Source of the DNA: Escherichia coli | GTDB taxonomy: Bacteria > Pseudomonadota > Gammaproteobacteria > Enterobacterales > Enterobacteriaceae | Length of the DNA stretch: 64,000 nt | Assembly (NCBI RefSeq): GCF_003334785.1 | Contig: NZ_QOWV01000005.1 | Strand: one strand, 5' to 3' | Shown here: positions 61,609 through 64,000 of the stretch, in pieces | Layout of the letters: each line of letters begins with the position of its first letter | Numbering within the stretch: the stretch's first letter is position 1 | The notes under the pieces: generated by a model | Seen by the model: the letters and a program-made list of their open reading frames with translations, nothing else | What the model was told of the DNA's origin: nothing | Databases searched by the model: none | Position numbers and translations under genes: made by a program

Positions 61609-63057
61609 TTATTCTCCATGCTCATTTTTCTTCAGCTTGCGCATCAGAAGCCACATACGTACTGTCCTGACTTTTAAATCTTTATCAGAGACGGATTCCT
61701 TCACCAGGTCAGCATGATGCTGATAGCCATTAAAGAAGACGTTCAGCACAACGGCGCTAAGGGTTGCGAGCATAATGCCGCTATGTAGCAGCGGTTGCAG
61801 TACGGCCGGTAACTTAGAAAAGAAATCGTGAGAGAGCGTCGGAGTCATGCCAACGCCGAGACTGATCGCCACAATATAGAGGTTGTAACGGTTGGTGGTG
61901 TAGTTACAGCGCGACAGAATTCGAATCCCTGTCGCCAGTACCATGCCGAACATCACTAGACCAGCGCCGCCCAGCACAAATTGCGGAATGGAGGCTACCA
62001 GCACCGCCATTTTTGGCACCATGCCAAACAGGATTAATATAATTCCCGAAGAAATACACACCCAGCGGCTATGAACGCGCGTCACGCTAACCAGGCCAAC
62101 GTTTTGAGAAAATGACGTGTGGGGGAAGCTGTTAAACGTGCCGCCTATCATTGTCCCTACGCCATCGACACGCAGCCCGCGAATAATATCGTGCGAAGAG
62201 AGTTTACGACCGACTATTTCACCCAGTGCCAGGAACATCCCCATCGACTCGATAAACACGATGATTAACACGGCAGTCATGGTCAGAATGGAAACGGGAT
62301 CGAAAATCGGCATACCAAACGACATCGGCGTAACAATCGCAAACCATGAAGCATCATGTAGCCCGGATAAATTGACTTCATTCATCATCCACGAAAGTAA
62401 AAAGCCAAATACAATCCCCAGTAATACGGCGACGTTGGACATAAATCCTTTCGCATAGCGAGTAATGAGCAAGATAAAAATTAAGACGGCAAAGGAGATA
62501 CCTAAATAAACGGGATTACCATATTGCGGATTCCCTTTACCTCCGGCGGCCCAGTCAATACCCACCTGAATGATGCTAAGCCCGATAGAAGTAATAACCA
62601 CACCGGTAACCAGTGGCGGGAATAAAGGCATCAAGCGACCGATAAGTGGCGCTAATAATGTGGTGATAAAACCCGCGGCGATAGTGGCACCAAATATCCC
62701 CAGCAGGCCGATATCCGGGTTCATCCCAATGGCTATCATTGGTGTTACAGCAGCAAAGGTCACCGACATAATCACCGGCAGGCGGATCCCCATAAAGCGG
62801 CCGATACCGATACATTGCAATAATGTGACGATCCCGCAGCAAAAGAGATCCGAGCTAATGAGCATCGCAATAGCTTCTTTTGAGAGGCCCAGTCGGTCAC
62901 CAATCATAAGAGGAACAGCGACTGCACCTGCGTACATGACAAGGACGTGTTGCAGACCGAGTATGATCAGCTTTCCTGGTGATAATATGCGGTCAACCTC
63001 ATCAGTTGGGCGGTCTTGCCCAGAAGATGAGGGAAGTTGGGAATCTATGGCGCTCAT
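61609..63057 (-). CDS. uacT: Uric acid:H+ transporter (NCS2/NAT family)
   Basis: Translation MSAIDSQLPSSSGQDRPTDEVDRILSPGKLIILGLQHVLVMYAGAVAVP... recognised as YgfU; start trimmed 43 codons to atg at 63057. Confidence 0.9.
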   Translation of the reverse strand: MSAIDSQLPSSSGQDRPTDEVDRILSPGKLIILGLQHVLVMYAGAVAVPLMIGDRLGLSKEAIAMLISSDLFCCGIVTLLQCIGIGRFMGIRLPVIMSVTFAAVTPMIAIGMNPDIGLLGIFGATIAAGFITTLLAPLIGRLMPLFPPLVTGVVITSIGLSIIQVGIDWAAGGKGNPQYGNPVYLGISFAVLIFILLITRYAKGFMSNVAVLLGIVFGFLLSWMMNEVNLSGLHDASWFAIVTPMSFGMPIFDPVSILTMTAVLIIVFIESMGMFLALGEIVGRKLSSHDIIRGLRVDGVGTMIGGTFNSFPHTSFSQNVGLVSVTRVHSRWVCISSGIILILFGMVPKMAVLVASIPQFVLGGAGLVMFGMVLATGIRILSRCNYTTNRYNLYIVAISLGVGMTPTLSHDFFSKLPAVLQPLLHSGIMLATLSAVVLNVFFNGYQHHADLVKESVSDKDLKVRTVRMWLLMRKLKKNEHGE

Positions 63058-63492
63058 CAGTGTTTCTCCTTTCGCCCGCCAGAGTAAAAAGCAACCGTTT
63101 ACGTTAATGAAACTGTCTAAACACATGCTCGTGGAGTGCCAGTTTTTGCGAGGAAGGGGAGTTAGAGACAGGAATTGCGGAGGCAATCACATAATCGTGG
63201 TTAAACCACGAAAATGAGAAGAGAACCTGACAATGGAATTATCTGTAATTTTCTCATATTGATATTTCATTAATCATTCTGGCATGTCGCACTCTCGCAT
63301 TTAATCGTTTTTATCTGGATAGCGCTCTTTTGATCGGCAATGTTGAAATAATGAAAGCGGCATAGATTGAGGGGCAATAATTTGAACTCAGTCGCAAAAT
63401 TATAATTAAAACGGTCATGCTACCTAATATATGCCCGTTTATTGCATCGCGAAATTTGAGAAGACATAACTCATTAAATGAAAGGGATGCAA

Positions 63493-64000
63493 ATGAATAA
63501 GTTTATTGCTGCTGAAGCTGCGGAATGTATAGGCTGTCATGCTTGTGAAATTGCCTGTGCGGTGGCACACAATCAAGAAAACTGGCCGCTGAGTCACAGT
63601 GACTTTCGACCGCGTATCCACGTTGTAGGGAAAGGCCAGGCTGCGAATCCGGTGGCCTGCCATCACTGCAACAATGCCCCTTGCGTTACGGCTTGTCCGG
63701 TTAATGCTCTGACTTTCCAGTCCGATAGCGTACAACTGGACGAGCAAAAATGTATTGGTTGTAAAAGATGCGCAATCGCTTGCCCCTTTGGCGTCGTTGA
63801 GATGGTCGATACGATTGCGCAGAAATGCGACCTTTGTAACCAGCGCAGTTCCGGCACGCAAGCCTGTATTGAAGTTTGCCCAACACAGGCGTTACGACTG
63901 ATGGACGATAAAGGGTTGCAGCAGATAAAGGTGGCCCGCCAGCGCAAAACGGCAGCAGGAAAAGCGTCATCAGACGCTCAGCCATCTCGCAGTGCAGCGT
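63493..64000 (+). CDS. ygfT: Putative Fe-S oxidoreductase, N-terminal ferredoxin-like domain only (3' end outside window)
   Basis: Open frame from atg 63493 to the window end: MNKFIAAEAAECIGCHACEIACAVAH... with several CxxCxxCxxxCP 4Fe-4S motifs; not in the ORF track because it has no stop in the window. Confidence 0.8.
   Translation, partial: MNKFIAAEAAECIGCHACEIACAVAHNQENWPLSHSDFRPRIHVVGKGQAANPVACHHCNNAPCVTACPVNALTFQSDSVQLDEQKCIGCKRCAIACPFGVVEMVDTIAQKCDLCNQRSSGTQACIEVCPTQALRLMDDKGLQQIKVARQRKTAAGKASSDAQPSRSAA

Follow-up and report, generated by a model that had tools for sequence, protein, structure and literature searches.

What are the two divergent genes at the end of a 64,000-nucleotide stretch of Escherichia coli DNA (contig NZ_QOWV01000005.1 of assembly GCF_003334785.1, called the window here at its full length), and how may the 435 bp between them control both? 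One of them, uacT, encodes a urate transporter, and the other, ygfT, encodes an iron-sulfur protein whose gene is cut by the window end. Very probably, this is the known E. coli uacT/ygfT-ygfS locus, on the margin of the cluster for anaerobic (reductive) degradation of urate, and its gene content and arrangement are already known, with nothing new there. What we add concerns the spacer, for which we tentatively propose, as a reading that may well be wrong, a compact two-way control region where one box for the regulator YgeV drives two weak, non-canonical sigma-54 promoters lying ~125 and ~180 bp away, together with a PurR operator in the uacT leader that stops urate import when salvageable purines are abundant. 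The regulatory elements behind this proposal, namely the shared box, the PurR-like operator, and a −24/−12-like element, are modest, testable additions to a known locus.

The role of YgfT in formate-dependent urate degradation was reportedly described by Iwadate and Kato in 2019. The biochemical work on the reductive urate pathway used here is that of PMC12507026 and 10.1101/2022.07.24.501321. According to the latter, the formate-dependent anaerobic consumption of urate by E. coli needs aegA, ygfT, and ygeV, and urate strongly induces ygfT and ygfK. According to the former, the reconstituted pathway starts with XdhD-YgfM, which converts urate into 2,8-dioxopurine (yanthine), continues with YgfK, which dearomatises 2,8-dioxopurine, and is completed by SsnA, HyuA, YgeY, YgeW/YqeA, and YgeX, with XdhD-YgfM and YgfK both reducing with NADH in vitro. 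The same paper gives YgfT the name “UacF”, without characterising it, and calls the regulation of these urate genes poorly understood. The original prediction had described this neighbourhood as poorly characterised, which holds for the biochemistry of YgfT and YgfS, but no longer for the neighbourhood itself, whose reductive pathway was solved between 2022 and 2025.

Identity of the uacT/ygfT Locus

Positions 61400–64000 of the window are matched by 5384 of the 5426 complete E. coli genomes, many of them at 100% identity, and the RefSeq names under the match are uacT, ygfT, yqfG, and yqfH, with the products “urate/proton symporter UacT” and “formate-dependent uric acid utilization protein YgfT”. 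In E. coli K-12, uacT (ygfU, b2888) and ygfT-ygfS (b2887-b2886) are the same genes, the K-12 order (idi-yqfH/yqfG-uacT, divergent ygfT-ygfS, ghxQ-guaD-xanQ) is also present here, and the published sigma-54 and PurR motif sequences were recovered at their expected spacing of 339.5 bp; no substantial difference from the K-12 locus was seen, with the window holding only the first 169 ygfT codons. We completed ygfT from a genome locus (L001) that matches window positions 61400–64000 exactly. The gene series of L001 runs idi, yqfH, yqfG, uacT, ygfT, and ygfS, and beyond ygfS it goes on with ghxQ, guaD, xanQ, xdhD, ygfM, ssnA, ygfK, mocA, yqeC, yqeB, arcC, and hyuA, to which a second genome stretch (L002) adds ygeY, dpaL (ygeX), ygeW, ygeV, and xdhCBA. 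The larger purine and urate neighbourhood that had been predicted to lie mostly outside the window is thus seen in the annotation of both stretches. The open reading frames (ORFs) also reproduced to the base the coordinates predicted earlier for uacT, the 435-bp gap, and the ygfT start, as well as the divergent pairing of uacT on the minus strand with ygfT on the plus strand, with which the RefSeq names agree. In a scan of genome contigs, the uacT-ygfT pair turned up only in Escherichia and two Citrobacter genomes.

On the minus strand, uacT has its ATG at 63055–63057 and its TAA stop at 61609–61611; the mechanical ORF list gives a longer frame of 525 aa from a TTG at 63186, and RefSeq supports the ATG at 63057. 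The prediction of a urate permease was borne out by the NCS2/xanthine-permease profiles TIGR03173 (509.8 bits, cutoff 414.15) and TIGR00801 (454 bits, cutoff 291.8) and by the RefSeq name UacT on identical DNA. The translation carries the NAT signature SQNVGLVSVTR, and UacT is related to the solved UapA and UraA. Urate specificity is assigned through the RefSeq name of the identical sequence and through the work of Papakostas and Frillingos 2012, in which the specificity of UacT for urate was reportedly established.

The Spacer as a Candidate Two-Way Control Region

We aligned the spacer of the window with its orthologues from Escherichia species and from Citrobacter sp. MGH106 and R56, six spacers in all, whose identity to the window goes from 97% down to 63%; together with the window, these make the seven genomes to which all invariance below refers. 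About half of the spacer columns are invariant, and they cluster in a few runs. A consensus scan found no sigma-70-like −35/−10 match on either strand of the spacer, with promoter and terminator counts at shuffle level, and a scan of 60700–64000 at E ≤ 1 found no Rfam family in it, the three sub-threshold chance matches all lying outside the spacer. Plain consensus searches of the 64-kb window showed no enrichment, neither for PurR with 3 mismatches (1 found vs. 0.69 expected) nor for sigma-54 with 2 mismatches (23 found vs. 26.7 expected), and therefore, significance was taken from matrices of published sites and from conservation. The PurR matrix was built from 26 published motifs of chromatin immunoprecipitation on arrays (ChIP-chip; PMC3159470), which give 8.8–24.9 bits in leave-one-out scoring with a median near 19.5, and the sigma-54 matrix was built from 50 ChIP sites.

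The element that connects this spacer to the rest of the cluster is a 12-mer, CTCATATTGATA, which recurs exactly in the ygeV/ygeW spacer (L002 10237–10248) and upstream of xdhA (L002 16054–16065), and nowhere else in the 108 kb searched. With the ygeV/ygeW copy, the exact match extends to a 15-mer, upstream of ygfK there is a palindromic variant with two mismatches, ATCATAATGATA, and positions 63250–63264 (TTTCTCATATTGATA) are invariant. In these regions, the box lies 112 to 216 bp from the sigma-54 site, which is the usual range of activator sites, and a k-mer of at least 12 common to at least three of the four upstream regions appeared in only 1 of 2000 dinucleotide-preserving shuffles. For the shared regulator sites that the original prediction had proposed to look for in this spacer, there is thus a candidate, the box that also occurs in the ygeV/ygeW spacer and ahead of xdhA. 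In the table of PMC12133099, ygfT and uacT both belong to the YgeV iModulon, alongside the sigma-54-bound xdhA, ygeW, and ygfK operons, and YgeV itself has a PAS/sigma-54-activator/HTH architecture. We regard the conserved box as a candidate YgeV upstream activator site, which may serve both divergent genes. No description of a YgeV binding site was found in the literature searched, and the best 120 matches to YgeV were E. coli sequences of 99–100% identity, with no other genera among them. The box was also considered as a site of integration host factor and rejected as such, given that TATCAA fits, the TTR part does not, and a location 110–215 bp upstream is atypical for such a site.

On the ygfT side, the original prediction that the spacer probably holds both promoters is supported by a published sigma-54 site from ChIP sequencing (ChIP-seq), namely OS32 (peak 3029005, FAT 3, assigned to ygfT; PMC4591121 Table 1), whose 17-mer TATGCCCGTTTATTGCA we found in the window within an invariant run at 63429–63447 (ATATGCCCGTTTATTGCAT). 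Its −12 TTGCA is canonical, and at −25/−24 it carries TG instead of the canonical GG, with a leave-one-out score of 5.8 bits; on the published data, ygfT has a weak, non-canonical sigma-54 promoter here. The table of PMC4591121 also lists sigma-54 sites for xdhA, ygeW, and ygfK of the urate cluster and, outside it, for potF. The potF site, TATGCACGTTTATTGCA, differs from the ygfT site by one base, with TG at −24 and very low occupancy in both (FAT 2 and 3), in contrast to the near-invariant GG at −24 of sigma-54 promoters, and the two appear to represent a small non-canonical sub-class. The TGGCATG at 63280–63286 was tried as a −24 element and discarded, since a −12 partner is missing at the proper distance and its C is not conserved.

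On the uacT side, the spacer has a candidate promoter element only, and to this extent, the prediction of two promoters stands only in part. In the block at 63125–63146, the minus strand reads CTGGCAyyCCACGAGCAT, with invariant runs at 63125–63134 and 63137–63146 and with GG and GC invariant at the sigma-54 spacing, and we consider CTGGCACTCCACGAGCA within it a candidate weak sigma-54 promoter for uacT. Further upstream, a conserved TGTGATT...CCGCA on the minus strand at 63171–63195 resembles a CRP site and includes the invariant run AATCACATAAT at 63185–63195 and a conserved GGAA.TGCGG; a CRP site is placed comparably in the promoter of ygeW (PMC12507026 and the promoter sequence).

Between these elements and the uacT start lies a strong predicted PurR-like operator, ACGTAAACGGTTGCTT, the best match in 216 kb with both strands scanned, which outscores both the ChIP-associated ygfK site (18.2 bits) and the intragenic ygfT motif (14.0 bits), and whose core at 63087–63102 is invariant. 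No report of this operator was found in the literature searched. PurR bound here would repress uacT when hypoxanthine or guanine is plentiful. PurR-like boxes are also found upstream of ygfK (AGTTAAACGATTGCGT, L001 37264–37279, 18.2 bits, identical with the published ChIP-chip motif) and in the ygeV/ygeW spacer (ACGAAAACGTTTGGCT, L002 10126–10141, 17.3 bits, absent from the published table), a feature that both have in common with the uacT/ygfT spacer, and PurR may act on the whole urate cluster.

Table 1. Coordinates of the features at the uacT/ygfT locus, as positions of the window.
Feature	Positions	Strand	Evidence
uacT (ygfU) coding sequence, 482 aa, urate/H+ symporter, NCS2/NAT family	61609..63057	-	ORF, profiles, RefSeq
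Divergent uacT/ygfT spacer, 435 bp, 39% G+C, 52% of columns invariant in 7 genomes	63058..63492	.	sequence, alignment
uacT ribosome-binding site AAGGAGA	63065..63071	-	invariant TCTCCTT run in alignment; 8-14 nt upstream of ATG
Predicted PurR operator ACGTAAACGGTTGCTT, 32-47 nt upstream of uacT ATG	63089..63104	-	matrix, 19.1 bits
−24/−12-like element CTGGCACTCCACGAGCA facing uacT, candidate weak sigma-54 promoter	63126..63142	-	GG-N10-GC, conservation
Conserved CRP-like site TGTGATTGCCTCCGCA, left half perfect, right half 3/5	63176..63191	-	read from sequence
Shared box TTTCTCATATTGATAT, candidate upstream activator site for YgeV	63250..63265	+	exact 12-mer recurrence, conservation
Sigma-54 site TATGCCCGTTTATTGCA ahead of ygfT, with TG for GG at −24	63430..63446	+	published ChIP-seq site OS32
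ygfT 5' part (first 169/639 codons), HydN/HycB-like domain, four [4Fe-4S] cysteine motifs	63493..64000	+	ORF, cysteine pattern
Intragenic PurR motif GGGCAAGCGATTGCGC	63770..63785	-	assigned by Cho et al. 2011 to the 'ygfT-ygfS' region; 14.0 bits

Several observations weigh against this two-way arrangement and must be kept in mind. One 12-mer found three times might seem very rare, an argument that we dropped since 75 canonical 12-mers occur at least three times in the 108 kb, mostly in repetitive extragenic palindromic (REP) elements; the significance of the box therefore rests on the restricted four-region shuffle test used instead, and the box is a candidate YgeV site only. The ChIP-chip region published as 'ygfT-ygfS' (3,028,215–3,029,251; PMC3159470 Table 1), whose authors placed their motif inside ygfT, maps to window position 63195 onward, as checked with both published motifs, so that the predicted PurR box falls ~91 bp short of it. 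The ygfT sigma-54 site is weak, with its FAT of 3 and TG for GG, and the in vitro RpoN screen by genomic systematic evolution of ligands by exponential enrichment (gSELEX) lists no peak in the spacer (PMC8743547). The ChIP-derived matrix gives the element facing uacT no more than 5.2 bits, which is chance level at large, with 251 sites of at least 6 bits in 216 kb, and neither the ChIP-seq list (PMC4591121) nor the gSELEX list (PMC8743547) has a sigma-54 peak at it.

This low score and the absence of listed peaks, together with the conserved TGTGA half-site ~50 bp upstream of the element, also favour another explanation for uacT, to which we give nearly an even chance: that a sigma-70 promoter, perhaps CRP-dependent, drives the gene, and that the block at 63125–63146 is the site of a transcription factor instead of a sigma-54 promoter. 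Against it stand the lack of any −35/−10 match on either spacer strand, the fact that uacT and the sigma-54-bound operons share the YgeV iModulon (PMC12133099), and the invariance of GG and GC at the right spacing; the ChIP-confirmed ygfT site, moreover, scores about as poorly as the element facing uacT.

Architecture and Possible Role of YgfT

The start of ygfT is an ATG at 63493–63495 with GAAAGGG ahead of it, and its frame stays open for 169 codons up to the window end. The first 169 residues contain 16 cysteines in four groups of the CxxCxxCxxxC(P) type and match Fer4_11 and HydN, in agreement with the ferredoxin-like start with multiple 4Fe-4S motifs that had been predicted. When the sequence was extended past the window, the frame ran to 639 aa in L001 with no early stop, and the domain search of the whole product gave the expected GltD-like oxidoreductase module, made of Fer4_20 (residues 188–298, 7e-37) and Pyr_redox_2 (312–623, 1.5e-20) behind Fer4_11 (53–137), all from Pfam on the L001 protein. 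The NCBIfam equivalog of YgfT, NF009451, covers residues 1–639 of 639 at 1505.9 bits against a cutoff of 1154, and two nucleotide-binding motifs of the GxGxxG type are present. The closest solved chains are the glutamate synthase (GltS) small subunit 6s6s_G (1.6e-108) and NfnI, aligned over residues ~176–631, and for residues 1–104, it is HycB of formate hydrogenlyase (7z0s_B, 1.4e-30). By its sequence, YgfT is an Fe-S flavoprotein in which a HydN/HycB-like domain with four [4Fe-4S] clusters is joined to a GltD-like module with FAD, an NAD(P)H site, and a further two clusters. A review (PMC8097209) counts AegA and YgfT among the GltD-like Fe-S flavoproteins and regards their mechanism as unknown.

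The E. coli paralogue AegA has the same three-part architecture, and both proteins have been implicated in formate-dependent urate degradation. The AegA profile NF009408 covers the full YgfT at 953.9 bits, which is below the AegA cutoff of 1003. AegA differs in being encoded elsewhere, without a uacT partner, and in its only modest induction by urate as given in 10.1101/2022.07.24.501321. The other GltD-like modules (the GltS small subunit, NfnB, the N-terminal part of dihydropyrimidine dehydrogenase, and YgfK) align with YgfT over ~176–631 (6s6s_G, 4ylf_B, 5jca_L, and 1gt8_A) and share Fer4_20 and Pyr_redox_2 with it, whereas YgfT has the extra N-terminal four-cluster domain related to HycB and HydN and has no partner catalytic domain or subunit.

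With this architecture, a working scheme for the locus can be drawn. UacT would import urate by proton symport, and YgfT/YgfS would accept electrons from formate via formate dehydrogenase H and hand them over either to NAD(P)+ or straight to the pathway enzymes, thus supplying the four electrons needed by XdhD-YgfM for urate reduction and by YgfK for the dearomatisation. Such a relay would account for the need for formate in a pathway with two reductions and four electrons. Two points stand against this scheme, namely that neither purification nor assay of YgfT was found in the literature searched, and that the 2025 pathway reconstruction runs in vitro on NADH without YgfT (PMC12507026).

Three other accounts of YgfT have to be weighed. 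Inside the window, the ferredoxin-like part alone is visible, it matches HydN (NF007658, 3.8e-35) and HycB, and a genuine stand-alone paralogue, ygfS, adjoins ygfT, all of which would suit a small stand-alone HydN-type ferredoxin ending just past the window; this account is practically eliminated by the identical genomes, where the reading frame goes on up to 639 aa and encodes Fer4_20 and Pyr_redox_2. Hardly more credible is a paralogue of the glutamate synthase small subunit working in nitrogen assimilation, with the adjacency of uacT being incidental, even though the gltD_gamma_fam profile TIGR01318 gives YgfT 850.7 bits and its best solved relatives are GltS small chains: the full-length YgfT equivalog scores far higher than TIGR01318, no GltB-like large subunit is adjacent to ygfT in L001, the divergent pairing with uacT is kept in other Escherichia and Citrobacter genomes, and a urate requirement and urate induction have been reported (10.1101/2022.07.24.501321). 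Improbable, though to be taken more seriously than these, is that YgfT is itself a reductase of urate or of an intermediate, like dihydropyrimidine dehydrogenase or YgfK, instead of a relay to NAD(P)+. Fer4_20 and Pyr_redox_2 are common to YgfK and YgfT, and direct electron transfer to uric acid was left open by Iwadate and Kato, as related by Liu et al. (10.1101/2022.07.24.501321). However, the Pfam scan found no FMN/dihydroorotate-dehydrogenase-like substrate domain in YgfT, which makes it an unlikely purine reductase, and XdhD-YgfM and YgfK already account for both reductive steps (PMC12507026). The electron relay from formate is the reading that we keep for YgfT/YgfS.

Neighbouring Genes and Other Observations

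In L001, the start of ygfS, whose product is a HydN-like ferredoxin, overlaps the ygfT stop by one base (24013), and the convergent gene ghxQ lies 36 bp downstream of ygfS; because of this overlap and the converging ghxQ, ygfT-ygfS is a two-gene unit. Between idi and uacT, there are two tiny annotated genes, yqfG (61482–61607, minus strand) and yqfH (61414–61485, plus strand). YqfG has 41 aa (MNFLMRAIFSLLLLFTLSIPVISDCVAMAIESRFKYMMLLF), is hydrophobic and signal- or membrane-like, and has no match among the NCBIfam profiles; its ATG comes one base past the uacT stop (TAATATG), which suggests that yqfG is translationally coupled to the urate transporter. The convergent yqfH encodes 23 aa and overlaps the 3' end of yqfG by 4 bases. 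At least three of the complete genomes, those of strains 23CRST028, YZ22PE244, and 200112, match the uacT region in two pieces ~780 bp apart, an IS1A transposase is annotated between the pieces, and in two of the three, uacT is annotated twice; the split match and the annotated transposase indicate an IS1 insertion interrupting uacT.

Elsewhere in the window, GCCGGATGCGGCGTGAACGCCTTATCC and other GC-rich 12-mers are repeated on both strands (~457–470, 6501–6516, 11606–11731, 24410–24427, and 51972–52106); they are typical REP elements and account for most of the 12-mers seen at least three times. Upstream of gcvT, a sigma-54-like CTGTCGCGATTTTTGCA at 43573–43589 (plus strand, 15.0 bits, GT instead of GG) lies ~90 bp before the known gcvTHP PurR site AAGAGAACGATTGCGT at 43667–43682 (plus strand); the intergenic sites listed from ChIP-seq (PMC4591121) do not include this sigma-54-like sequence. 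Release factor 2 is well known for its +1 frameshift. For its gene, prfB (~58142–59240, plus strand), the mechanical ORF list has only a 293-aa frame from 58359, and RefSeq joins the gene from two pieces through the programmed frameshift.

Implications for Urate Degradation in E. coli

If the proposed two-way control region is true, the recognition sequence of YgeV would be defined and uacT would join the PurR regulon, and the YgeV box and the PurR operator on the importer would become handles on how urate induction is combined with purine repression. The biochemical gap remaining at this locus is YgfT/YgfS as the formate link to the NADH-dependent reductases. All of this matters beyond the bacterium, given that urate breakdown by gut bacteria affects host urate levels and that strains are being engineered against gout.

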